64,000 nucleotides of DNA from NCBI GenBank assembly GCA_963843145.1, contig CAWJJC010000023.1:32001-96000 (forward strand), read 5' to 3'. A program made the translations under genes and the position numbers. A model generated the notes under the pieces. It made no database searches. It saw nothing but the letters and a program-made list of their open reading frames with translations, and had not been told where the DNA came from. This DNA is from an uncultured delta proteobacterium (GTDB taxonomy: Bacteria > Desulfobacterota > RBG-13-43-22). Shown here one piece after another: positions 31,928-57,109 of this stretch (the first letter of the stretch is position 1; every line of letters starts with the position of its first letter).

Positions 31928-32528
31928 TTAAAAGCTGATAACTTTTTCCGCCACTTGCAGACTGGTGACGATATCCAGCATATTGGTTGTTTCGCCCACC
32001 TTTTTCTGTTCCAACAAGCCGAAATGATTCAGGCATGTGCCGCAGACGAGAACCGAGACGCCTTGCTCGGCCAGCCCCTGAATAAGCGGCAGGGATTCCG
32101 CTCCCTCGATGGTCAATTTGACCCCGGAATTCAAAAAAACCAAGCGCCAGAGACTTTTTCCCATTTCCTTCAAAGTCTTCAAAAAATTGAGCATGAGTTG
32201 GCTGCCCAGGTAGTCATCCCCTGTTCCTAACTTATCCTTGGTAATCAAGATGATCGTTTTTTGAACGCCCTGAATCAGATCCTGAACAACGGCTTCGCAG
32301 GCCGGTCCACCCCGCCCGCCTTTCGGCGATAATCTTAAAATCCGATTCGGCGGTCTCGACGCTGACCCCAAAGCCCCGGCTTTCCAGAAATCTTTTGACG
32401 TTTTCCGCTGAAGCCGGATTGTCCACCAGGACCTGAAAGTGATTCAACTGGGGGTGATTCTCAATATAATCCCGGGCTTCAGTGACCGGCAAGGGGCAGG
32501 ACAGGCCGCGGCAATTCAGAGTCTCCAT
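31928..32528 (-). CDS. yedF: Selenium metabolism protein YedF (TusA/SirA plus DsrE domains), frameshifted near 32310
   Basis: CRGLSCPLPV and VDN in the N-terminal ORF; LGTGDDYLG, FLNSGVKL, CGTCL and GETTNM in the C-terminal ORF. Confidence 0.88.
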
Positions 32529-42827: not shown

Positions 42828-43982
42828 ATGTTTCTTCATCTCAGCCCGGAACAGCGGGCGCTTCAAAAACAGGTTCAGGCCTTGGTGGCGGAACGGATCG
42901 CCCCGCGGGCGGCGGAAATCGATGCCCGGGACGAGTTCCCTCAGGAAAGCTACCTGGCCTTCAAGGAGACCGGCCTGCTCAAGCTGTCCCTTCCCAGGGA
43001 GTACGGCGGGATAGGGGCGGATGCCACCACCCTCTGCCTGGTGATTGAGGAGATCTCCAAGGCCTCCCCGGCCTCGGCCTTGTTGGTCTTTCCCACCCAG
43101 GCCGTGATCCGAACCATCCGGGAAGTGGGCACGGAGGAACAAAAGCAACGTTTCTTTTCCGCTATGTCGGCCGGGGACAAACTGGCCGCCTTCTGTCTGA
43201 CCGAGCCCAGCTACGGCTCTGATGCCGGGTCCCTGCAAACCCGGGCGAACCTGGAAGGTGATCACTATCTGGTGAACGGATCCAAAACCTATATCACCCA
43301 AGGCCCACACGCTCATTTCTACCTGGTTTTTGTCCGAACCGGGCCCGGGAAACGGACGGCCGGCATCAGCGGGCTTATTATCCCGCGTGATACCCCGGGA
43401 TTATCCTTCGGAAGAAAAGAGCGCAAAATGGGGCTGGGGGGATCGGTCACTGCCGAGATGATCTTTAAGGATGTCCGGGTGCCCAAAGATAATCTGCTCC
43501 TCTCCGAGGGGCAGGGATGGACTATTCTTTCGCGGCACTCCAACCCCATGAGGGTCTGGGGGGCCGCCTCCATGGCCCTGGGAATCGCCGAAGGAGCTTA
43601 CGAGGCCGCTCTGGAATTTGCCAAAAGAAGGGTCCAATTCAAACGAAAAATAGCGGCCTTCCAAAGTATCCGCTTCATGCTGGCCGACATGATAATGTCC
43701 ATCGAGGCTACCAAATCTATGATTTACCGGACCGCCGGTTTGATCGACGCCGGGGAGGGCACCTTTCGGGATATTGAAACCCTGGTATCCATGTCCAAGT
43801 GTTATGCTTCCGACATGGCTATGAAGGTAACCATCGATGCCGTTCAAATCTTCGGCGGGGCCGGGGTTCTCAAGGGCTGCCCGGTGGAGCGAATGATGCG
43901 GGACGCCAAAGCGATTCAAATTTTCGATGGCAGCAACCAGATTCAACGGATGATCGTTTCGAAAAATATTATTTTAGATTAA
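42828..43982 (+). CDS. Acyl-CoA dehydrogenase
   Basis: FCLTEP..GSD, NGSKTYIT, RVQF, QIFGGAG and RDAK..QIFDGSNQI motifs. Confidence 0.94.
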   Translation: MFLHLSPEQRALQKQVQALVAERIAPRAAEIDARDEFPQESYLAFKETGLLKLSLPREYGGIGADATTLCLVIEEISKASPASALLVFPTQAVIRTIREVGTEEQKQRFFSAMSAGDKLAAFCLTEPSYGSDAGSLQTRANLEGDHYLVNGSKTYITQGPHAHFYLVFVRTGPGKRTAGISGLIIPRDTPGLSFGRKERKMGLGGSVTAEMIFKDVRVPKDNLLLSEGQGWTILSRHSNPMRVWGAASMALGIAEGAYEAALEFAKRRVQFKRKIAAFQSIRFMLADMIMSIEATKSMIYRTAGLIDAGEGTFRDIETLVSMSKCYASDMAMKVTIDAVQIFGGAGVLKGCPVERMMRDAKAIQIFDGSNQIQRMIVSKNIILD

Positions 43983-43993
43983 GGAGAATTATT

Positions 43994-45157
43994 ATGGATT
44001 TTGAATTATCGGAAGAATTGCAAGCGGTACGGGAGATGGCCCGCGATTTTGGAGCCGAAAAGATCGCCCCCTTTGCCGACAAGTGGGATATGGACCATTA
44101 TTTTCCCTATCAGGAAGTCATCAAGCCCATGGGCGAACTGGGATTTTTCGGGACGGTGATCCCTGAAGAATACGGTGGGAACAATATGGGCTGGCTGGCG
44201 GCCATGATCCTGACCGAGGAGCTCGCCCGAGCCTCTAGTTCTCTGCGGGTTCAGATCAATATGCTGGCCCTGGGCTGCGCCTTCACTATATTTCGCTACG
44301 GATCCGAGGGCTTAAAGGAAAAATATATCTCCAAGCTGGTCAACGCCGAATACCTGGGCGGTTTTGGCATCACCGAACCCAACGCCGGTTCGGATGTCAT
44401 GTCCCTGAAATCCACGGCCGAGGACAAAGGGGATCATTGGTTGATCAACGGTTCCAAGACCTGGATCTCCAATGCCAGTATCGCCGACGTACTCATTTAT
44501 TACGCTTACACCGATCGCTCGGCCGGCGGCCGGGGCCTGTCGGCCTTTGTCATCGAGCCGCGGAATTTCAACGGGATTTCCACCACCGATCTGGACAAGC
44601 TAGGTTCCCGCTCGTCCCCCACCGGGGAGCTTTACCTGGAGGATACCCGCGTTCCCAAGGAAAATATCCTGGGCAAACCCGGAGACGGGGCCAAGATCGT
44701 TTTTGGTTCCCTCAATCAGACCCGGCTCTCGGCGGCCGCCGGCGGCGTGGGACTGGCCCAGGCCTGTCTGGACAGCGTGACCAAGTACTGCAACGAGCGC
44801 GAACAGTTCGGCAAACCCATCGGTCAGTTCCAGATGAACCAGGACATGGTGGCCCAGATGACCGTGGAGATTGAAGCCGCTCGGTTGCTGGTTTATAAAG
44901 CCGCCTGGCAGAAAGATCAGGGCAACCTGAACAACAATTTAGAAGTGGCCATGGCCAAATACTTCGCCGGCGAGGTGGTCAACAAGGCCTCCAATTTCGC
45001 CCTGCGGATTTTAGGGGCTTACGGCTATTCCACCGAATACCCGGTGGCCCGGTATTACCGGGATGCCCCCACCTATTTCATGGTGGAAGGCTCGGCCAAT
45101 ATCTGCAAATGGATCGTGGCCCTGGATCAGTTGGGCATCCGGAAAGCGAACAAGTAG
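43994..45157 (+). CDS. acd: Glutaryl-CoA dehydrogenase, non-decarboxylating (glutaconyl-CoA-forming)
   Basis: SSSLRVQ and MVEGSANICK (Val before the catalytic Glu, as in the Desulfococcus enzyme), adjacent to gcdA. Confidence 0.88.
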   Translation: MDFELSEELQAVREMARDFGAEKIAPFADKWDMDHYFPYQEVIKPMGELGFFGTVIPEEYGGNNMGWLAAMILTEELARASSSLRVQINMLALGCAFTIFRYGSEGLKEKYISKLVNAEYLGGFGITEPNAGSDVMSLKSTAEDKGDHWLINGSKTWISNASIADVLIYYAYTDRSAGGRGLSAFVIEPRNFNGISTTDLDKLGSRSSPTGELYLEDTRVPKENILGKPGDGAKIVFGSLNQTRLSAAAGGVGLAQACLDSVTKYCNEREQFGKPIGQFQMNQDMVAQMTVEIEAARLLVYKAAWQKDQGNLNNNLEVAMAKYFAGEVVNKASNFALRILGAYGYSTEYPVARYYRDAPTYFMVEGSANICKWIVALDQLGIRKANK

Positions 45158-45195
45158 GGGCAGCATGCCTCGCCGAAAAGCAGCTAACGATAGTT

Positions 45196-45291
45196 GGGAA
45201 TGATGGAATATTGGGATGGTGGAATAAAGGCAGTCTGAAAATAGCCTTTCTCCATCCCATTGTTCCACTATTCCATCATTCCATTATTCCC
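45196..45291. repeat. Inverted array of degenerate 8-mer tandem repeats (GGAATRAT-like)
   Basis: GGAATGAT GGAATATT GGGATGGT GGAATAAA ... TGTTCCAC TATTCCAT CATTCCAT TATTCCC. Confidence 0.8.
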
Positions 45292-45325
45292 GAACGTATT
45301 TCAGACCTGAGGAGGTTTTTTAACG

Positions 45326-47101
45326 ATGCACCCTTATTTTAAGAAAATGGACGACTTGGGCAAGCCTTTAAAGCCCGCTCAGTTCGACAAGATGGCGGAA
45401 AACCGGGCCCAGATCGATGCGGTCCTGATGGAAGTGGCGGCCGAGGTCGAGCGGGTCAAAAACGCGGGTTTACCGGCCGAAAAAATCCATAAACGAGGGG
45501 AGATGACTGTTTGGGATCGGATCGAGTATCTGATCGATCCCGGGACCTTCTGTCCCTTGCATACCCTTTACAATCCCCGGGACAATGAAGAAGGGATGAC
45601 CGGGGTAATCGACGGCCTGGCCCGGATCAGGGGCAAGTGGTGCGTCCTGATCGGGTTCGACAACAAGGTGATGGCCGGGGCCTGGATCGCCGGGCAGGCG
45701 GAAAACCAGCTTCGGGTGACCGATCTGGCCAAACGGCTCCGAATCCCTCTGGTTTGGCTGGTCAACTGTTCCGGGGTCAAGCTCCCTGAGCAGCAGGAAG
45801 TATATGCCGACCGGCGCGGCAACGGGACCACCTTCTTCCGCCATGCCGAACTGGAACAAATGGGCATCCCCATCCTGGCCGGGATCTACGGCACCAACCC
45901 GGCCGGCGGCGGATACCAGGGAATCAGCCCGACCATTCTGCTGGCGCACAAAAACGCCAACATCGCTGTCGGGGGAGGCGGGATCGTCAGCGGCATGACC
46001 CCTAAAGGGTCCTTTGATGAAGAAGGGGCCGAACAGATTATTGAGGCCACCCGTCATTTCAAACAAGTTCCGCCGGGCAGCGTGGGGGTCCACTTCGACC
46101 AAACCGGCTTTTTCCGGGAGGTCTATGAAAATGAAACCGAAGTCCTGGAGGCCCTCAAGGGATACATGGCCGAGATGCCGGCCTATCATCCCCGGTTTTT
46201 TCGGGTGGCCGAACCGGCCGAACCCAAGTTCCCTTTGTCCGATCTGCCTTCCCTGATTGCCTTCAACCAGAAAGCGGTTTACGATTTCGACAATTTCTTG
46301 GCCCGGCTGGTCGACAACAGCGAGCACCTGGAATTCCGCCCCGGGTTCGGCCCGGAGGTCTATACCGGCTTGGTGAAGATCGACGGTTTCCTGATGGGGG
46401 TGATCGGCAACCGGCAGGGATTTCTCGGTCCCCAGTATCCGGAATACACCAACGAATACATGGGGGTCGGCGGCAAGCTTTACCGCCAGGGTTTAATCAA
46501 GATGAACGAATTCGTCACCCAGTGCGGCCGGGACCGAGTGCCGGTTATTTGGTTTCAGGATACCTCGGGAATTGACGTGGGCGATATCGCCGAAAAGGCA
46601 GAACTCCTGGGGTTGGGCCAGTCGTTGATCTACTCCATCGAGCAGACGGATGTGCCTATGATGCTGGTGGCCCTGCGCAAAGGCACGGCGGCGGCCCATT
46701 ACATCATGGGTGGGCCGACGGCCAACAACCACAACGCCTTCACCCTGGGCACGGCCACCACCGAAATCTACGTCATGCACGGGGAAACCGCCGCGGTGGC
46801 TTCCTTCGCCCGCCGGCTGGTGAAAGAAAAGGACGCCGGCCGCCCCCTCCAGCCGACCATCGACAAGATGAACGAACTGGCGCAACAGTACTATAACAAT
46901 TCCCGTCCGGTCTACTGCGCCAAACGGGGTTTCGTGGACGAGATCGTCCGCTACGAAGACCTACGGAAGTACCTGGTGGCCTTCACCGATTCCGCCTACC
47001 AGAATCCAAAATCGATTTGCCCCCAGCACCACCTGATGCTGCCTCGCTTGATCCGGGCGCAGATCGTCAAAGGTTTGGACCGGCCGAAAAAGGAAAGCTA
47101 A
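45326..47101 (+). CDS. gcdA: Glutaconyl-CoA decarboxylase alpha (carboxyltransferase) subunit
   Basis: NCSGVKL, GTNPAGGGY, GGKLYRQGL, QDTSGIDVG, RKGTAAAHY and SICPQH motifs. Confidence 0.93.
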   Translation: MHPYFKKMDDLGKPLKPAQFDKMAENRAQIDAVLMEVAAEVERVKNAGLPAEKIHKRGEMTVWDRIEYLIDPGTFCPLHTLYNPRDNEEGMTGVIDGLARIRGKWCVLIGFDNKVMAGAWIAGQAENQLRVTDLAKRLRIPLVWLVNCSGVKLPEQQEVYADRRGNGTTFFRHAELEQMGIPILAGIYGTNPAGGGYQGISPTILLAHKNANIAVGGGGIVSGMTPKGSFDEEGAEQIIEATRHFKQVPPGSVGVHFDQTGFFREVYENETEVLEALKGYMAEMPAYHPRFFRVAEPAEPKFPLSDLPSLIAFNQKAVYDFDNFLARLVDNSEHLEFRPGFGPEVYTGLVKIDGFLMGVIGNRQGFLGPQYPEYTNEYMGVGGKLYRQGLIKMNEFVTQCGRDRVPVIWFQDTSGIDVGDIAEKAELLGLGQSLIYSIEQTDVPMMLVALRKGTAAAHYIMGGPTANNHNAFTLGTATTEIYVMHGETAAVASFARRLVKEKDAGRPLQPTIDKMNELAQQYYNNSRPVYCAKRGFVDEIVRYEDLRKYLVAFTDSAYQNPKSICPQHHLMLPRLIRAQIVKGLDRPKKES

Positions 47102-47145
47102 GAAGGGATTCGATCCCTTCCGAAAATTATCCGAATTAGAGCTCG

Positions 47146-47186
47146 ACAAGGTCCAGGCGATTCATCTTGCCTGGACCTTGTATTTT
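47146..47186 (+). terminator. Rho-independent terminator
   Basis: 13-bp stem ACAAGGTCCAGGC / GCCTGGACCTTGT followed by ATTTT. Confidence 0.75.
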
Positions 47187-47257
47187 AAAGCTCCGAAATT
47201 GGAGAGTGTGGGTGCAGTCGCACCCCAAAAAAGATCGCCGGGAGTGGTTTTTTAGTT

Positions 47258-47284
47258 TAGGAAAATCCGCCCTTCTGCCGATAA
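47258..47284 (+). promoter_or_regulatory. Possible sigma-28 promoter
   Basis: Perfect -10 GCCGATAA at 47277-47284, with a weak -35 (TAGG) at N15 spacing. Confidence 0.4.
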
Positions 47285-47370
47285 GTTAGGCATTCCGCAG
47301 TCTGTCTTATTCAAACTTCAATCCTTATTCTTTCCACAGAACCCATCCCTCAGGGGGGGTTGGGGCGGAG

Positions 47371-48279
47371 GTGCAAAAAATGAAACATCGGCTGGTCTTC
47401 GGTGGTTTAACCGCCACAATTATCCTAGTTTTGGGGATGGTTCACCCGGTTTGGCCGGATAATAAACTGTTTTTACCCTTGGTTATTACATCAGCCAATC
47501 CCCAGCCGACTACGGCCATTATCGTAGACCACACCAGCACCGATTTGAGTAAGATCCCGGCCCAGTGGATTACCCAGGCCAAAACGATGTTGCGGGCCAG
47601 TTACGGCCATACCTCCCATGGCAGCCAGTTGATTACCGGGATGCAGGCCATTGAGAGTAATAGTTCTCTAAACGTGAATCATCTTTTTGATTTCAATACC
47701 AGCGGGACCGCAGAAACGGGGGTTCAGTCTATAAAAGATTCCACCCCATCCGGGGACCTGGGAAACCCGGATCGAACCTCCTGGGCCAGCCGGACGCAGG
47801 ATTACTTGAAGAGCACCGCGGGTCAGAACCGCAATCTGGTGGTCTGGTCCTGGTGCGGACAGGCGGATACCTCCAACCCGGCCGATATAGACACCTATTT
47901 GAATTTGATGAACCAGTTGGAGAATGAATTTCCGAATGTCCGTTTTGTCTACATGACCGGCCATTTGGTGGGAAGCGGTCCTAGCGGCGACCTATATCAA
48001 CGCAACGATCAAATCCGGAATTATGTCCGGACCCACAACAAAATCCTCTTCGATTTTGCCGACATCGAAAGCTACGCCCCGGACGGGACCTATTATCCTA
48101 ATGAAAGCGACGGCTGCAACTGGTGTTCCGCCTGGTGCAGCGCCCACCCGGCCGACTGCACCAACCTGCCTCCCCTCGGGTCCTGCGCCCATTCTCACGA
48201 GTTCAACTGCTACCGCAAGGGAATCGCCTTCTGGTGGCTTCTGGCCCGTCTGGCCGGTTGGGATGGGGCAACTCAGTAA
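47371..48279 (+). CDS. Secreted hypothetical protein (possible SGNH-like hydrolase) with FLPLV motif
   Basis: Signal peptide, KLFLPLV, YGHTSHGSQ, WSWCGQ, FDFADIES and a Cys-rich C-terminus. Confidence 0.8.
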   Translation: MQKMKHRLVFGGLTATIILVLGMVHPVWPDNKLFLPLVITSANPQPTTAIIVDHTSTDLSKIPAQWITQAKTMLRASYGHTSHGSQLITGMQAIESNSSLNVNHLFDFNTSGTAETGVQSIKDSTPSGDLGNPDRTSWASRTQDYLKSTAGQNRNLVVWSWCGQADTSNPADIDTYLNLMNQLENEFPNVRFVYMTGHLVGSGPSGDLYQRNDQIRNYVRTHNKILFDFADIESYAPDGTYYPNESDGCNWCSAWCSAHPADCTNLPPLGSCAHSHEFNCYRKGIAFWWLLARLAGWDGATQ

Positions 48280-48290
48280 TTATTCATCCC

Positions 48291-50388
48291 CTATCGCCTC
48301 TTCGCTGCCGTCGGCCTATTTACGGGGCCCCCCTCCGAGGGCGATAATTTGATGACCACCGGATCCCCGGTGGTGGTGGAGATAGCCACGTCATCCACGA
48401 AAAAATTACTGGTATACCCTTCATCGGTTACCACCTTGAAGGTCAGATCCAGCGTCTGTCCCCGGTACCCCGATAAATTGACCGTGTCCTGCACCCACCC
48501 GTTGGTGTTGTTATTGGCGCATAAATCATATCCTTTAAGGTTCTGCGTCCCCAGGAAGACTCCGGCGGTATCATAACCGCAGAGATCATTCGAACCGATC
48601 CAGTACCAAAAACTGAGGGTCTGCGCAGTATCGGGGACCTTGATCTTTTGGGATAAAACGGAAATCTCGAAATCGGCCCCTCCCAGCCAGGCCGCCCAAG
48701 TCCCGCTATGGGGTGTGATCTGCAGTCCTTCGACCGGAGTCATAACCAGCATGTACCCGTTGCTGGAGGACTCCTGCCAGGTGCCGTCACGCCCGGACTC
48801 AAAATCACCGTTTCGAAGGGCGGCGGAAGACGTCGGTTTCCACCGGATTATTAACAACCAGGGGGAAATAGATCCACTGGGAGGCCGTGAAGGGCGGGGA
48901 GTAAATCACATAATTGGCCGAATAACCGATATTGGAAGTGCCCCGGGTGATCCGCATATAGCCGCTTTCTCCCCAGGAGGCCCCCCAGGAGTTTCTCATA
49001 ATCCAAGTGTTTTCAATATCGTTCCAGCCGACCAGCACCACGGCGTGATTGACCCCGCCACCGCAATAATTTCTTTCGTCGGTACTAAAAACGCCTCCCC
49101 GGTAGCCCTGCATCTTCGGGCCGGAACAGACCGCTACGGCCACCGGCCCATAACTGTAGATGGCATTTTTGATCGCTTCCGCGGTCGGGATGCTGGAATC
49201 ATTGCCCACGTAACTCCAGTTAATCAGCCGGTAAGGGTGGCTGAACACCCGGTTACAGGATTGGGTGGCGCCCACGTAGGGAAAATCCGCTTCCAAAACG
49301 GCCCCGGGCTGGGTCTGGTTGATGGCGGTTTGATTGTAATGGTATTCATGGGCCCACCAGCCGCCGTTGCAACTATACCCGTCGGTGTTACAGGAAAGCA
49401 GGAATTCCTCCGAGAGGTCCGTGGTCAAGCTGCTTTTCCATTTCAGATTGGCTTCAAAGGGACCGACCGTGCCGAAGGCCCAGCAACTCCCGCAATTTCC
49501 CTGGTCCCGGACCGGGGTGAGTATCCCGGAATCCCTCCAGTCAAAGGAGGCAGGGAGTCCTAGTGTCGGCGTGCCGGATAGCGGGGCTTTCCGGTCAGCG
49601 GAGAAACGGGGTTGATCGATAGGCGGTTCTGGATTGCTCAAATCGGAAATCAGGGAGATCTCAGCCGCCTGGAGGGTGATTTCCATCTGGGGGGCCTGGG
49701 ATTCGATCCAGGGGCGACGATAGAGGAGCCGAACGGCGGTTTCCCCCTCCGTCACCCCTTCCAGAGAAATAATTTGTCGGGCGGAACCCCCCAACCTACT
49801 TCCCGAAGATTGAAATTGCACCGCTTCCCCCGGTTTCAATTTCAGCGCCTCCAGGGTTTGAATTTCCCAGACATAGCCGCTGGCCAGATTGGATTCCAGG
49901 ATTAAGGCCAGAGGTTCACCGGACTTGACGCTTCCCCTCAATTCCAGCAGGGACGGGCCATCAGTAAACGGCAGGGTTGGATCAGTAGCCAGGAACAAGG
50001 CCTTCCGAAACTGCCCCCACCCCTCAGTTCCCTGAAGCTGGATCTCATAGGTCAGACGGCCTTCCGGGCCGACCTGTTTCCGGAGGTTAGGGGTAACCCT
50101 CTGGGCCTTGAGTTTCCCCAGGAGTTGATCGGCTAAGAGCCGATCGATCTTAGCTTCCCGATCCCTCACTTCCGGGCTGAAAGCAATTTGGACCTCCGCT
50201 TCCCAATGCTGATCGGACAAAAAGCGGGCCGCGGTTTGGCTGTGAGCCGGAGAACCGGAAACCATCCCAAAAAAAGTTAAAATCAGAATGGTAATCCTCA
50301 CCAATAAGGGAGCGAAGATAGGATTAGATATGGACACGCTGAAGCACTCCTTCCATTGTGGCCCGATACTATTAGTGGTACTGCGCAC
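48291..50388 (-). CDS. Secreted chagasin(I42)-papain(C1A) fusion protease with C-terminal beta-sandwich domain, paralog A (frameshift near 48838)
   Basis: I42 motifs ESNLASGYVW, LGG, YRRPW. C1A motifs DQGNCGSCWAF, NHAV, RNSWG. Then YFPLV, and an NGDFESG domain in the next frame (48291-48857). Confidence 0.85.
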
Positions 50389-50714
50389 TTTTGGATAGGT
50401 AGTTCTCCAAAAGGAAAAATCGCCTTATTTTATCAGGATAGTTTAATAATCATAATCGCCACCGTCAAGAGGGAAGTCCCCTGGCCATTCCCCGAGGAGA
50501 TCTAAAGGAAGTCCAAAAAATTCCGATTTACCCCGTGGCCTGTCAATAACTCCGGAAAGGTCTTGATGAAGGACCTGCAGGAAATCCGGCTTTCCGTCGG
50601 ATAGCCCTGCAGGCGTGGGGTGGGCAAGTGATAAATTTTCCAACAAAATCGTTTGTGCGATCGGGGGCTTTAATGGGCCGGAGTGAGCTGATCCTCAATG
50701 GGGATTTAGAAGTT

Positions 50715-52877
50715 TTATCGGCCTTTCTCCGCCGATGGCCGGGCGGACTTTCTTATCCCGGGAGAAAACGACATCCTGGTTTTAGGGATCTCGCCTGAGC
50801 CTCTCAACGACTGCGGCGACTGGGCCCCCACCAGGATGGACACATCATCCAACAGGAGGGCTGCTGAAAAATCTCCGGTAGGATCAGGGGCGATCTCCGC
50901 CTTAAAGGTCAGATCCAAGGCTTTACCCTGAAAATTTGCCGGAATAGCTACCTTTCATTCGTCCAGCCGAAGAGTTCCTGGTTGCAAATCGTAGGTTTTT
51001 ATAGGGGTAGTGTCCAAGATAAACCTCCCCATAACTCCCTCCAATATTATCGTTGGAGTCGATCCAATACCAATAATCGAGCTCAGTGGCATCCGCGGGA
51101 ACAGTGATGCGTTGGGTGAGCGTGGCGACCTCAGCAGGATCTCCACCCAACCAGGCGGCATAAATTACCGCTATGATTAGAAATATCATAATCGGATAAA
51201 TTGACAATTACAAATTCTTGCCAAGAATTAGCTCGAAGTGATTGCCCAGGTCCCATCCGGCCCGTTTTCAAAATCCCCGTTGCAAACGATTTGCTGGCAG
51301 GCGCCTTTATCGTTCAAAACCACCGGCAAATAGACCCAATGGGTGACGGCGGTTTGCGGCGGGGACGGCGGAGGCGTTGGAGGTAACGGCGGAGGACTGG
51401 ACGTATAGACCACGTAATTGGCCGCATAGCCGATATTGGAAACATTTCTTTTTATTCGCATATAACCGGACTCACCCCAGCCGGTTCCCCAGGAATTCTT
51501 CATGATCCAGGTATCGGTGGCATCGTCCCACCCAACCAGCACCACGGCATGGTTGACCTGCCCGGTCTTGCAAACATTTTTTTCATCGCTGGAAAAAATC
51601 CCCGAGCGATAACTGGAGAAGGCCGAACCGGCGCAAACAGCCGCAGCAACCGGCCCGTAGGTGGCGATGGCGTATTTAATGGCTTCCACCGAGGGCACCC
51701 CGTAAGAATTGCCCACATACTTCCAGCTTTCAATCTTCTGGTAATGGGCATGAGGAGGATTGCAGACGCTGTTGCTGGCGGTATAGGGAAAAAGGGTTTC
51801 CAGTACCGATCCCGCTTCGAGTTCACCGGACACCTTTTTGTCCTTGTGATAATCGTGGGCCCACCAGCCGCCATTGCAGCTCCAACCGCTGTCGTTGCAG
51901 GAAAGCAGATATTGCTCGGAAAGATCGGCTAATTCCCCCCCGCTGATCAACAGCTTGGCCTCCAAAGGTGCTACGGTGCCGAAGGCCCAACAGCTCCCGC
52001 AGGATCCCTGATTTTTGACGGGGGAGACATAATTCTGCCCATTCACGCTGCGCCAATCAAAGGAAGACGCCAATTGCAGCGAACCGGAGGCGATTTCCTC
52101 TCCTGGGGTAGTGGTAACCAGGGCTGCCGGGCGCCTCAACGGGGGGTTGGGATTACCTAAGTCGGCCACCAGGGCGATCTCGGGAACTTGAATGGTAGTC
52201 TTTCTTTTAGGGACCTGATCGCCCAACCAGGGCCGGCGGTAGGTAAACTGGACAGAGGTTTCAACATCCTCCAGTCCTTGCAAATAGATAATCTGGGTCA
52301 TGGGGGCACCCAATAGATCACTTTTGGACTCGAAAACGGCATCCCCCTGCTGAAGGACCTGTTGGGCATTCGCAGTCGTGAGTTCCCAGATAAACCCGGT
52401 CGAGGGATTGCTTTCCAAAATCACTGGGATGGACTCCCCTTTTTTGACCCTGCCAATCAGTTCCAGGGCCACCGGGCCATCGGTCAACGGGATGGTCGGA
52501 TCGGCGACGACAAAAATCACTTTTCTAAACTGATCCAACCCCTCGTTTCCCTGGAGAGTGATCGTATAGGTAAAGCCGGCATTTCTTTCCAGACTCCGGG
52601 ATAAATGATAGGCTACCCGATGTGGTTGAACCTGTTCCTGGAGGGTTTGTCGAAGCTTCTGAACTATCCCTGATTCCTGCGCAGCCAAGTCCGGGCTGAA
52701 GGTGATGGCAATGTCCGCTTCCCAATCTTGAATCCCGGTTTGAATTAATTCACCAAAGCACTCTCCCGACCCGAAGGAGATCAATGTGATCAAAGTTAAA
52801 GAAAAGAAGAATGCCAACCCGCCCAACAGCCTCTTCAACGGGTTGAAGTTTTCACGAAAGCGATTGAAATTATTCAT
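50715..52877 (-). CDS. Secreted chagasin(I42)-papain(C1A) fusion protease, paralog B (tail 50715-51230 broken by several frameshifts)
   Basis: ESNPSTGFIW, LLGA, YRRPW; NQGSCGSCWAF, NHAV, KNSWG; YLPVV; NGDFENG. Tail fragments AAWLGG...YWYWI and LDLTFK...LDDVSI match paralog A. Confidence 0.85.
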
Positions 52878-52932
52878 AGTCGTTTATTAGGTGTAATTCC
52901 TGAGTTGCTTTTCCCTTATTTGCTCAGTACTC

Positions 52933-52959
52933 TTATCGGCATTTCCCGGACAAACTTAA
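52933..52959 (-). promoter_or_regulatory. Sigma-28 (FliA/SigD) promoter
   Basis: TTAAGTTT-N11-GCCGATAA against consensus TAAAGTTT-N11-GCCGATAA, about 55 bp upstream of the protease ATG. Confidence 0.75.
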
Positions 52960-53241
52960 ATCCTGTCCCGCCTTTTGCGGAGGTGGGATAAACCGCTCGA
53001 AATCGTTCCCCCGATCAGCCGGGTCGGGCTAAAACGAAAAAATTTCCTCACCGCTTTCATTTTATTGTCCGTTTTACCGATAAGGCCGGTAAAGGAGCGG
53101 ACCAACTGTCTTTTTACAGAAAATTTGGAAAGTTAAGCAATCCTTGTGGTAGACCGGCGACGGGGTTGCCGCCGGGTTTCCGGCGCGCTTCCGGCCCGGG
53201 CATAATTCAAGACGCCGCCGACTGACGCGAAAGGGGGTACA

Positions 53242-55278
53242 TTGACCAGGCCGGATCATAGAAAAGGAAGAAAAGCCGGATTTTTTCGAATCAGGAGAGA
53301 TAAACCCTCAGCCTTGAATTTCAAGACCGATATATCCGAGCGGAGGCGCTTGGAGAAGGAGCTCAAAAGTTCGGAAAAATTCTATCGAACGTTGATTGAG
53401 AACGCCATCACCGGCGTATATCTGATGGAGCCTGGCCGGTTTATCTTTGTCAATCCGCGCTATTGCGAAATGAGCGGTTATTCTTCCGAGGAATTGCTTA
53501 TCCTGGATCCCTTGTCGCTGATCGCCCCGGACTATCGGGAAGAAATTAAATCCCGGTTGAACAAACGTTTCAGCGGGGAGGAACCCTGGGCCGAATACGA
53601 AACCCGAATGATATGCCGGGATGGCTCTTTTCGGGATATCCTCATCCGGGCCGTTCGGATCGAATATGACGGCCGGCCGATGGTTCTGGGCAATTTTTTC
53701 GACATCAGCAGCCGGAAACAGGCCGAAAGGGCGTTGGAAGAAAAGGAAAAGAAATTTCGTTTGCTCTACGAGGATGCCCCACTGGGATACCAGTCTCTGG
53801 ATAAAGAAGGACGGCTGCTGGAAGTCAATAAGGCCTGGCTGGATCTATGGGATTACCGGCGCGATGAAGTCCTCGGCCGCTGGTTCGGGAATTTTCTGAC
53901 CCCGGAATCCCAAAAATTGTTCGCCGCCCGTTTTCCCTGCTCCGAAGGGAATGAAGCCCTTCACGGGGTGGAATTTGAAATTCTGCGTCGTGATGGGTCC
54001 TCCAGGACAATTGCCGTCACCGGACGAAGGAGCTTGGAACGCTCCGGCCAAATGAACCAGACCCATTGCATTATTCAGGATATAACCAATCGAACCCAAT
54101 TCGAACGACAGTTGCGCCAAGTCCAGAAAATGGAAGCCATCGGCACCCTGGCCGGAGGAATAGCTCATGATTTTAATAATCTGCTGGGGGCCATTCTTGG
54201 GTACGCGGATTTGGCCCTCCTGGGCGCCTCCGGCGACTCTTCCCTGCGACACAATCTGGAACAGATTCTCCAAGCCGGATTTCGGGCCAGAGGGTTGACT
54301 AAACAAATATTAGCCTTCAGCCGGCAATCCGAGCAGGAGCGCAAACCCCTCCGGATCGGTCCGATTATCGAGGAAACCCTCAAGCTAATGAAGGCCTCCA
54401 TCCCTTCCACCATTAAAGTCCAGGCCCTTATTGCTGATGGAGAAGACCTGATCTTCGGAGACCCTACTCAAATCCATCAGGTCATCATGAACTTGTGCAC
54501 CAATGCGGCTCAGTCCATGCGTGACCAGGGGGGGATACTAAACGTGCGTTTGTTTCCCATTGAGATCCCTATAGAAGAGAAACATTGGCATCCCGATTTG
54601 TCAGCGGGCCCTTTTCTTAAGCTGGAAGTTGAAGACACCGGCCAAGGGATAGAGCCCAGATGGCTGGATAAGATTTTTGATCCCTTCTTCACCACTAAAG
54701 ACCCCGGTGAGGGCACAGGAATGGGTCTGGCCGTAGTGCACGGGATTGTCAAAAGTCACGGTGGGATAATCGGCGTTGAATCCGAACCCGGGAAAGGCAG
54801 TCTTTTCACCGTTCTTCTCCCGAAAATCCAACACGAAACCCTACCTGAACCTATCGAAGTCAGTCCAATGCCCACTGGGCGGGAGAGGATCTTATTGATT
54901 GACGATGAGGAGATTTTGGTCGACCTGGGGAAACAAATGCTGGAGTACCTGGGGTACCAGGTCACGACCCGAACCAGCAGCCTGGAGGCCCTGGAATTAT
55001 TCAAGAGCCAGGCCGACCGGTTCGATCTGGTCATAACCGATCACACCATGCCCCAGATGACCGGATTGGACCTGTCCAAGGCCCTGTTGGAGCTCAGGCC
55101 CGGAATCCCCATCCTCCTTTGCACGGGCTTTAGCGAAACCATCACCCCGCAGAAGGTTCAGGCCCTGGGCATTCGGGAATTAGTCATGAAACCGATCGTC
55201 TTTAAAGAATTGGCCGGAATCATCCGCCAGACATTAGACAAATATCAAATTCCGCTCCAACGTTCTTTAGCTCAATAG
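53242..55278 (+). CDS. Hybrid sensor histidine kinase (2 PAS, HisKA, HATPase, REC)
   Basis: [44 protein letters not shown] and KP motifs. Start is uncertain. Confidence 0.94.
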
Positions 55279-55535: not shown

Positions 55536-55946
55536 TCAGTCAGCGATCAGGTTGAATTCCAGGACTTGGATCTCTCCCGGGTCGAGGGAACCTTTGACCG
55601 GATGCGGACCCAAGCGGACTTTTTTTCCGATGAGTCCCATATCTGCCGTTTCCGGGTCTCTATTCACAATCAACCCCATCACCCAGGGTCCCTGTTCCAG
55701 CTCGACCAGGGCAAGAACATAGGGGGGTTGTTTGCCTTCCGGGGCTACCCGGATGACCGTGAAGGTGCGGATCGCGCCCTCCCCTTTAATCTCCGCCGGA
55801 AACAAGTTTGGCCCTCGGCAGGTTCGGCAGACTCCTTGAGGGGGAACGGTGTAGGTCCCGCAGGATGGGCAGTGCAACCCCAATAATTTTCCCTCCCTCA
55901 GGCCCTGCTGGTATTGCTCAAACGTTAAGGGATATTCCATCTTCAA
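55536..55946 (-). CDS. DUF35 Zn-ribbon/OB-fold protein (thiolase partner)
   Basis: CPSCG...PP..VCRTC and PYVLALVELEQG motifs; overlaps the thiolase stop codon. Confidence 0.92.
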   Translation of the reverse strand: MKMEYPLTFEQYQQGLREGKLLGLHCPSCGTYTVPPQGVCRTCRGPNLFPAEIKGEGAIRTFTVIRVAPEGKQPPYVLALVELEQGPWVMGLIVNRDPETADMGLIGKKVRLGPHPVKGSLDPGEIQVLEFNLIAD

Positions 55947-57109
55947 CTCCTGAAAATGAGGTTGCAGACTGTTCCGAAATCTCCGCCCAGGGTGTCCACC
56001 AGCCCCACCCGGGCTCCAGCCACCTGGCGGGCACCACTTTCCCCGCGCAGTTGTTCTACGATCTCCACCACCTGGGCCGCGCCGGTGGCCCCAATCGGAT
56101 GCCCCTTGGCCTTGAGGCCCCCCGAAGGATTAACCACCACCCTGCCCTTGAAGGTCGTCTCCCCTTTAGCCGCCGAGTCATGGGCTTGTCCGAAATCGTA
56201 AAAACCCAAACCCTCCAAGGCCAGGATTTCGGCAATGGTAAAACAATCATGGAGTTCCACCACATCGATATCCCGGGGAGTCAGTCCTGACTGCTCATAG
56301 GCTGCCTGAACCGAGGTTTCCCGGGCCTTGACCCGAGTCAGATCCTGCTGACGGTATAATGGTCCGGCCGAGGCCTGGCCCATCCCGACGATATAAACGG
56401 GTTTTTTCGTCAGCTTCCGGGCCGTCCCGGCCTCCGCGATGACCACCGCCGCCGCGCCGTCAGAAAAAGGGCAGCAATCCAACAACTGCAGGGGATCGGC
56501 CACCATCATTCCGGTCAGCACCGTTTCCGCCTGAATGATTTTCTGAAAATGGGCCTTGGGATTCAGGAATCCGTGGGAATGGTTTTTGACCGCCACCTCT
56601 GCCATGTTCCTCTTTAGAACCTCCAGGGGGATTCCATACTTGTGGGCGTACAGATGGGTAGCCATGGCAAAGACCCCTGGGAAAGTCAGCCCCACCGCCG
56701 ACTCGTACTGGGCCTGGCAAGCCATGGCGAAGGTCCGGGTGGCCAGAGGCGTGCCCATTCGGGCGGCCCGTTCGGTACCCCCGGCCAGGACCAGGTCGTA
56801 AACCCCGGAGGCCACCAGCAGGGCCGCATGGCGTATGGCCACTGTAGCCGTGGCACAGGCCGATTCGAAGCGGGTGGCCGGGGCCGATACGGGCAGGCCT
56901 AGCTCCGCGTGGGCAAAGGGCGCCATGTGCAGTTGCCCCTCCTCAAAATCACCCAGACAGTTGCCGAAAAACAGAGCCTGCAACGCCTTGGGTTCCAGGT
57001 TGGATTGTCCAATAGCTTCCAGGCCCGCTTCGGCAAACATCTCCAGATTGCTCTTCCGGGAAATGCCGAATTTGGTCATCGCCGCCCCCACTACTGCAAC
57101 CTCCCTCAT
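55943..57109 (-). CDS. SCP-x-type thiolase family protein
   Basis: ESACATA, DCCPFSDGAAA, ELHDCFT and NPSGGLKAKGHPIGATG motifs. Confidence 0.93.
   Translation of the reverse strand: MREVAVVGAAMTKFGISRKSNLEMFAEAGLEAIGQSNLEPKALQALFFGNCLGDFEEGQLHMAPFAHAELGLPVSAPATRFESACATATVAIRHAALLVASGVYDLVLAGGTERAARMGTPLATRTFAMACQAQYESAVGLTFPGVFAMATHLYAHKYGIPLEVLKRNMAEVAVKNHSHGFLNPKAHFQKIIQAETVLTGMMVADPLQLLDCCPFSDGAAAVVIAEAGTARKLTKKPVYIVGMGQASAGPLYRQQDLTRVKARETSVQAAYEQSGLTPRDIDVVELHDCFTIAEILALEGLGFYDFGQAHDSAAKGETTFKGRVVVNPSGGLKAKGHPIGATGAAQVVEIVEQLRGESGARQVAGARVGLVDTLGGDFGTVCNLIFRS

Follow-up and report, generated by a model that had tools for sequence, protein, structure and literature searches.

Genes A and B lie in tandem on the minus strand of a 64,000-nucleotide (nt) stretch of DNA from an uncultured delta proteobacterium (the window; positions 32,001 to 96,000 of contig CAWJJC010000023.1, assembly GCA_963843145.1), and are best explained as paralogs coding for secreted papain-family (C1A) cysteine proteases in which a chagasin-type I42 inhibitor domain occupies the place where the propeptide usually sits. 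For that I42 domain, service as a cis-inhibitory pro-region is the best explanation we can offer, and we give it about an even chance of being right. It is the most economical account, because the I42 domain directly precedes the C1 catalytic domain, its inhibitory loops are conserved, the spacer between the two domains is constrained, and C1 and I42 genes are found as pairs elsewhere.

The two proteins share 47% identity across 481 amino acids (aa), and short direct DNA repeats, 2504-2507 nt apart, fall on conserved motifs of both genes, in keeping with the two tandem paralogs of common architecture that a sequence-only reading of this DNA had described. The gene A protein is identical to database protein P0001. 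Gene B has a frame open from a GTG at 50388 (527 codons); the database call for its product (P0035, 510 aa) starts at the ATG at 50337, and the ortholog alignment likewise places the start there. The features of both genes are as follows (window positions; residues are those of protein A).

51228..52877, minus strand: gene A open reading frame (ORF), 549 codons, from ATG at 52877 to TAA at 51230-51228, with putative signal, N-domain, I42 domain, spacer and C1 domain.
Within 51228..52877, minus strand: end of the gene A ORF, encoding the initial 17 residues of the C-terminal domain.
52761..52877, minus strand: residues 1-39, a basic N-terminus followed by a ~20-residue hydrophobic stretch, as read from the sequence.
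52467..52760, minus strand: residues 40-137, the N-domain, family-specific and lacking a Pfam or PDB match.
52170..52466, minus strand: residues 138-236, the I42 domain (Pfam core, 52185-52448), with loops NPSTG (L2), LLGAP (L4) and RPW (L6).
52077..52169, minus strand: residues 237-267, a proline-rich spacer with a conserved ADL(G/S)NPxPP motif.
51411..52070, minus strand: residues 270-489, the Peptidase_C1 catalytic domain, with Gln290, Cys296, His443 and Asn461.
50718..51301, minus strand: remnant of the gene A C-terminal MAM-like domain, in three frames, with ~5 frame changes past the stop at 51230-51228.
48805..50337, minus strand: gene B ORF, 510 codons from ATG at 50337, with the out-of-frame tail VETDVFRRPSKR before its stop.
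49948..50241, minus strand: gene B N-domain.
49651..49947, minus strand: gene B I42 domain (Pfam core, 49672-49929), with loops NLASG (L2), RLGGS (L4) and RPW (L6).
48925..49557, minus strand: gene B Peptidase_C1 catalytic domain, as delimited by Pfam.
48835..48850, minus strand: approximate site of the single frame change in gene B, which parts the protease ORF from the C-domain ORF.
48291..48857, minus strand: gene B C-domain ORF, 188 codons in another frame, encoding an NGDFE-initiated MAM-like or choice-of-anchor-J-like beta-sandwich.

Both proteins carry an intact catalytic domain. More specifically, they match Peptidase_C1 (PF00112; gathering cut-off, 20.7 bits) at 176.4 bits (A) and 171.8 bits (B), from profile positions 1/2 to 211/216 of 220. 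The catalytic residues Gln290, Cys296, His443 and Asn461 of protein A (Q19, C25, H159 and N175 in papain) are invariant in 46 aligned relatives, and gene B codes for the corresponding motifs QGNCGSCWAF, NHAV and NSWG. From this domain match and these residues, A and B are best explained as predicted C1A cysteine endopeptidases. The I42 domain is recognizable in both as well: PF09394 (Inhibitor_I42; gathering cut-off, 27.2 bits) matches residues 144-231 of A at 59.9 bits and residues 154-239 of B at 44.6 bits. Among solved chains, the I42 segment of A matched ICP of Pseudomonas aeruginosa (2wgn) at E 3.6e-6 and chagasin (2nqd) at E 8e-6, and a profile built from ten fused I42 domains matched solved ICP/chagasin chains at E 5.6e-19 (2wgn_B) to 7.7e-8. 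A search using the I42 domain alone reached close relatives only. In the AlphaFold2 model of protein A, residues 136-233 form eight strands, with a predicted local distance difference test (pLDDT) score per 10-residue block of 67-94, mostly 84-94; the domain is thus modeled with the eight-stranded Ig-like beta fold. The sequence-only reading had called both the chagasin domain and the full C1A catalytic set, and both calls hold at Pfam gathering thresholds in A as well as in B.

The available text of one study on chagasin (PMC2607524) places the binding site of the free inhibitor in three loops, i.e., L2 (NPTTG), L4 (a hydrophobic pair, then GxGG) and L6 (RPW/F). L6 is kept as RPW in A and B; L2 of A is a conservative change, and L4 conforms to GxGG in neither protein. 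Within the I42 domain, conservation across the 46 aligned relatives peaks in these loops rather than in the strands: G161 and W164 of L2 are invariant, and conservation is 90% or more at N157 (L2), G190 (L4), and R215 and W217 (L6). Consistently, RPW is found in 117 of 150 fused proteins, and mean pairwise identity is 43% in the I42 domain, against 29% in the N-domain and 28% in the spacer. As had been noticed from the sequence, the paralogs differ at the key NPxTG loop (NPSTG in A, NLASG in B), and each version is conserved within its own clade; that this difference tunes the two paralogs differently is speculation.

What precedes the I42 domain is likewise distinctive. Residues 1-39 of A, of which residues 13-34 are modeled as a helix by AlphaFold2, are a putative signal peptide or signal anchor. 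The N-domain that follows (residues 40-137) found nothing in Pfam, NCBIfam or PDB sequences, where its best match (E 0.07, not significant) was a designed protein, and the ESM Atlas returned no usable match for it or for the whole of protein A. It is modeled with a beta-alpha-beta-beta-alpha layout (pLDDT 84-90), and it is unrelated to the I42 domain by hhalign (probability 0.1%). A nine-sequence N-domain profile retrieved just 70 proteins at E ≤ 1e-3 from 1.84 billion representatives. We scanned 56 of these with Pfam, omitting six very long proteins and eight known from the gene A search: 31 carried I42 and C1, 6 (short proteins) I42 only and 2 C1 only, and the remainder comprised 8 short domainless fragments together with 9 multi-stretch or unrelated proteins, seemingly spurious. 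The near-exclusive occurrence of the N-domain ahead of I42-C1 argues for a dedicated module, as part of a pro-region would be. No I29 propeptide (PF08246-type) was matched, either by the complete proteins (E ≤ 1) or by the pro-regions taken alone (E ≤ 10), and NCBIfam holds no matching curated family model for the I42-C1 architecture. Two further statements of the sequence-only reading therefore stand, namely, that both genes encode an N-terminal hydrophobic segment and a ~100-aa unrecognized domain, and that no ERFNIN-type (I29) propeptide can be discerned. Between I42 and C1, the spacer measures 17-53 aa (median, 29) in 150 of 182 proteins examined, a set biased because it was retrieved by similarity, and falls within 20-39 aa in 133 of the 150. 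In protein A, spacer residues 247-267 are modeled as disordered (pLDDT < 50), and the proline-rich spacer as a whole (residues 237-267) is a candidate processing region. Inter-domain covariation (mutual information with average product correction, 160 sequences) gave top pairs that are confounded by phylogeny and uninterpretable without a structure.

The fusion of I42 to C1 is far from confined to this window. Of 8000 candidates scored in a database search with gene A, 2747 proteins passed E ≤ 1e-3, and PF00112 and PF09394 occurred together in 116 of the best 120 of these 2747 relatives, which bear source names such as "C1A family cysteine protease," "protease inhibitor I42 family protein" and "C1 family peptidase." In species-representative genomes we found at least 581 relatives among at least 608 matched stretches, of which 78 loci were kept. 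These 78 loci hold 86 C1-bearing ORFs, and I42 lies upstream in the same ORF in 34 of them, distributed by phylum as Chloroflexota (25/27), Myxococcota (4/5), Pseudomonadota (4/5) and Thermodesulfobacteriota (1/7). Identity reached at most 45% among the kept loci, so the own lineage lies outside those representatives; the few named relatives at ~50% identity are metagenome-assembled genomes (MAGs) of Deltaproteobacteria or Desulfobacterota. No conserved partner genes surround the fused genes at the six loci L001, L002, L004, L011, L015 and L036. I42-C1 is therefore a single-gene architecture abundant in databases, and A and B are ordinary members of it. In the tree, A and B fall in sister clades of 16 and 11 rows, each with a support of 100 in the Shimodaira-Hasegawa-like approximate likelihood ratio test (SH-aLRT) and joined at 87, and A-type and B-type proteins apparently share contigs in several relatives; the supported clades and this co-occurrence indicate that the duplication is old and that both copies have long been retained.

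Two claims have to be divided in the light of this distribution. That chagasin-type proteins are normally separate from their targets is true of the characterized ones, but fused proteins abound among database sequences. That A and B represent a rare uncharacterized system fails as to rarity, the architecture being very common and confined to a single gene, and survives in that no paper studying the natural I42-C1 fusion was found in the full-text literature, subscription journals aside; the papers retrieved concern free chagasin-type inhibitors only. Among them, a 2026 preprint, as far as its accessible part goes, describes a free chagasin-type lipoprotein inhibitor of Pseudomonas (10.64898/2026.06.02.729523), the available portion of a review of inhibitor mechanisms includes no natural I42-C1 fusion (PMC7863939), and a 2023 survey of the papain family, in its accessible sections, explicitly set aside multidomain prokaryotic C1A proteins (PMC10380794). 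The fusion is thus common in databases and apparently uncharacterized.

The accessory beta-sandwich modules of relatives include Flg_new_2, PPC, CARDB, fn3 and BACON. The cultured Levilinea saccharolytica KIBI-1 has a single 1686-codon ORF (locus L014, 5860-10917) with N-domain, I42, C1, Flg_new_2 repeats, C11 clostripain and PPC, thereby combining two cysteine protease families within a single secreted protein. Among the loci examined, only L018 (5767-8607), L020 (1952-4759) and L025 (972-3587) have another domain between I42 and C1; their order is I42, MAM-like, C1, with ~240 residues from I42 to C1, unlike the narrow spacer of 17-53 aa seen otherwise.

The same two modules are also found genetically linked as separate genes. 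A stand-alone ORF for a secreted I42 protein comes first in one Cytophagia MAG locus (L067), and past a single stop codon lies a C1 ORF that has a signal peptide of its own; in another (L063), the C1 ORF precedes the I42 ORF; and at L011 a stand-alone, lipoprotein-type I42 gene lies directly after the fused gene. Ten plasmid records had a C1 match, and in six of them an annotated I42 gene lies just downstream of the C1 gene (Bacillus wiedmannii, Bacillus sp. BR3, B. cereus C1L, B. cereus VKM B-370, Deinococcus aetherius, with one intervening gene, and Streptomyces canus). In B. cereus MLY1, the seventh case, an unannotated I42 ORF occupies the equivalent place, and the remaining three plasmid loci (Methanosarcina vacuolata, Ralstonia RRA.1 and Deinococcus KNUC1210) have no I42 neighbor. 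These pairs rest on RefSeq annotations or hidden Markov model matches. In them, two genes are involved and I42 is mostly downstream, whereas in A and B the I42 domain is upstream within one polypeptide; the fused form thus joins a widespread protease-inhibitor gene pair into one gene, and the linkage of C1 and I42 genes elsewhere argues that the two modules act on each other.

Several known systems resemble A and B in part. Chagasin/ICP inhibitors (MEROPS I42; Trypanosoma cruzi chagasin 2nqd, P. aeruginosa ICP 2wgn and amoebiasin-2 3m86) belong to the same Pfam family, are matched by the profile of fused domains at E 5.6e-19 to 3e-13 and have the corresponding three loops, of which L6 is kept as RPW in A and B while L2 and L4 depart from the canonical motifs to differing degrees. 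They are, however, trans-acting proteins that stand alone, with 105-132 residues, whereas the I42 domain here is internal to a protease precursor (residues 138-236 of A, behind an extra N-domain) rather than a separate trans-acting protein of ~110-130 residues. The I29 propeptide of cathepsin-L-type C1A zymogens occupies the same place N-terminal of C1 and has the same cleft-blocking role as that proposed here for I42; it is, however, helical and without sequence relationship to the pro-region of A and B, which is predicted to combine an all-beta Ig-like domain with an alpha/beta N-domain. Cathepsin C (dipeptidyl peptidase I), which the whole protein matched best in both sequence and fold, is a C1A enzyme with an N-terminal beta-domain on its cleft in cis. 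In families other than C1A and I42, staphopain-staphostatin operons encode a cognate inhibitor together with the protease, and the I9 propeptide of subtilisin is a tight inhibitor that is degraded for activation.

In the scheme we favor, each gene would encode a pre-pro-enzyme whose pro-region consists of the family-specific alpha/beta N-domain and the chagasin-type I42 domain in place of a helical I29. After export, loops L2, L4 and L6 would plug the enzyme's own active-site cleft, as free chagasin does in trans, and the plugged cleft would keep the enzyme latent; a cut in the ~30-residue proline-rich spacer, after which the pro-region would be lost or degraded, would then activate it. The ancestral gene would have ended in a MAM-like beta-sandwich, giving an ancestral precursor of ~700 residues. 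We would further suggest, as a tentative proposal that we are slightly more inclined to doubt than to accept, that I42, a free-standing inhibitor fold, and its dedicated N-domain have been captured as an intramolecular pro-region throughout a large bacterial clade, in the role played in eukaryotic enzymes by I29, and that A and B, through their NPSTG and NLASG loops, may be tuned to different release thresholds.

A number of observations weigh against cis-inhibition by the I42 domain. The AlphaFold2 model of full-length protein A has a predicted template modeling score (pTM) of 0.43, a disordered spacer and low confidence near the catalytic helix, so domain placement is unreliable and the model neither supports nor refutes docking. 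Neither L2 nor L4 keeps the canonical form (NPTTG and GxGG), with B (NLASG) the farthest from it. Close relatives with C1 only are also without a recognizable prodomain, so folding may not need one, and the separate, usually downstream I42 genes would fit a trans-acting safety inhibitor equally well. Binding by chagasin-type inhibitors is very tight, and release after cleavage would therefore require an extra step; moreover, the spacer yielded no identifiable cleavage site, and the frame of both genes is broken here toward the 3' end.

Some of these points can be turned to other explanations of the I42 domain. It may never be removed, staying on the cleft of the mature enzyme as an exclusion-type or specificity-modifying domain, much as cathepsin C retains, on the cleft of the active enzyme, a beta-barrel exclusion domain at its N-terminus that is not known as an I42 member. 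The fold search with the full model returned C1 enzymes only, with cathepsin C first (1jqp and 3pdf_A), and the aligned 346-348 columns exceed the catalytic domain alone, which, like the lack of an identified cleavage site, speaks for a permanent domain; the root mean square deviation of that alignment is, however, ~17 Å in a model of unreliable domain placement, and it is over the catalytic cysteine itself that these conserved loops lie in chagasin, so the outcome would be a dead rather than a restricted enzyme. We regard a permanent domain as distinctly improbable. A released I42 domain acting in trans, on papain-like proteases of competitors or grazers or on the paralog (A on B and B on A), is improbable as well. 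It would fit the stand-alone I42 gene beside the fused gene at L011 and the different conserved L2 loops of A and B, and the I42 proteins characterized so far are all trans-acting, going by the accessible portions of the sources (PMC2607524; preprint 10.64898/2026.06.02.729523). Against this, tethering would create a very high local concentration, so that the own cleft would be bound first, and the fused genes are single at most loci examined. Finally, the domain might have lost its inhibitory function and be a mere Ig-like spacer or adhesion module, of the Ig type found in numbers on other secreted bacterial proteases. Relatives do bear many accessory beta-sandwich modules, and two of the three loops depart from the canonical motifs, but it is the loop residues and not the strands that are most conserved, and the position directly before C1 and the spacer length are fixed, with another domain intervening only at the three loci named above; we therefore consider this very improbable.

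A different kind of alternative concerns the genes themselves, which could be decaying pseudogenes whose frame breaks are real and whose proteases are unmade, or made without the C-terminal module. The sequence-only reading had included an NGDFE-initiated beta-sandwich in both proteins, and this part of it falls, the domain being out of frame in A and in B. We checked the frames by tblastn with intact orthologs (P0002, 722 aa, 83% identity; P0006, 715 aa; and P0031, 681 aa, B-type, 85% identity) and by three-frame translation. Gene B is in one frame to 48838 and in another at 48863-48294; its protease ORF tail VETDVFRRPSKR is out of frame, and KPTSSAALRNGDFESG... carries on in the next frame. 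Gene A is in one frame to 51219 and then in three frames down to 50718; it stops at NGDFENGPDGTWAITSS, 17 codons into the C-domain, and the remainder can be traced through the frame changes listed above. The clustering of these ~5 changes and the stop in a ~500-nt tail, with none in the previous 1650 nt, favors decay, as do the tails of three relatives (P0012, P0017 and P0040), which read like out-of-frame translations of the same linker/C-domain region. On the other hand, the protease parts of A and B are intact, and the gene B C-domain ORF is 77-90% identical to the C-domains of seven intact orthologs, within the 76-95% identity that these show to one another, which indicates that it has not decayed. 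Two unrelated genes on the minus strand of the window are also split, namely, an LPG_synthase_TM gene (29598-29065 and 29135-28596, covering profile positions 2-143 and 150-302) and a LivF-like ABC ATPase gene (60734-60297 and 60523-60047, covering ABC_tran positions 2-88 and 110-136). Four broken genes among ~50 in the window form a pattern typical of assembly indels. The breaks in A and B may accordingly be either assembly indels or a real, recurrent uncoupling of the C-domain, and outright decay of the two genes is, in our judgment, unlikely, though a serious contender. A programmed frameshift in gene B was rejected, as a 97-nt stretch showed no slippery heptamer by eye and the reading frame is kept in most orthologs.

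The C-domain itself scored 28.3 bits against PF20773 (cut-off, 26.9), but over profile positions 117-164 of 191 only, and remained under the cut-offs of PF00629 (22.2 versus 26.4 bits) and NF038128 (29.1 versus 30 bits); this MAM-like beta-sandwich is probably a binding or anchoring module. Six relatives (P0012, P0017, P0037, P0040, P0042 and P0043) stop at or near the linker/C-domain boundary, two of them exactly at ...LRNGDF. Such early ends could reflect contig ends, recurrent errors or true uncoupling of the C-domain.

Genes A and B are flanked by genes of other kinds. Convergent on gene B is a gene for a secreted-looking 302-aa protein with a cysteine-rich C-terminus (47371-48279, plus strand), which has no Pfam, NCBIfam or PDB match. 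It has 6412 database relatives, of which the best 120 are 52-88% identical, mostly "hypothetical protein" entries from MAGs of Anaerolineae, Chloroflexi and Deltaproteobacteria; it is absent from all 78 loci and apparently shares contigs with three close relatives of the proteases. The divergent neighbor of gene A (53242-55278, plus strand) codes for a PAS-PAS-HisKA-HATPase-REC hybrid kinase. At the Syntrophorhabdaceae locus L036 (8037-10553), a REC-PAS-HisKA-HATPase kinase gene lies right behind an N-domain-I42-C1 gene, which may be coincidence. Farther out (55536-57109, minus strand, and 42828-47101, plus strand), the context is one of fatty-acid and amino-acid fermentation-type metabolism, with a DUF35/ChsH2-like OB-fold protein and thiolase pair, two acyl-CoA dehydrogenases, a carboxyl transferase and two clusters of Liv-type ABC transporters, as would suit a syntrophic, Desulfobacterota-like anaerobe. 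Rfam gave no match in 47000-54000, and promoter and terminator scans came out close to the shuffle expectation.

The window adds two further members, both damaged, to the I42-C1 architecture. If the I42 domain does act as a cis-inhibitory pro-region, these proteins would represent a second, independent route to a papain-type zymogen in bacteria, in which a trans-inhibitor has been recruited as propeptide, and their loops would form a natural series of weakened chagasin loops, suited to the study of how a tight inhibitor turns into a releasable one. Such enzymes occur often in Chloroflexota and related anaerobes, and may therefore aid extracellular protein breakdown in sediments and digesters.

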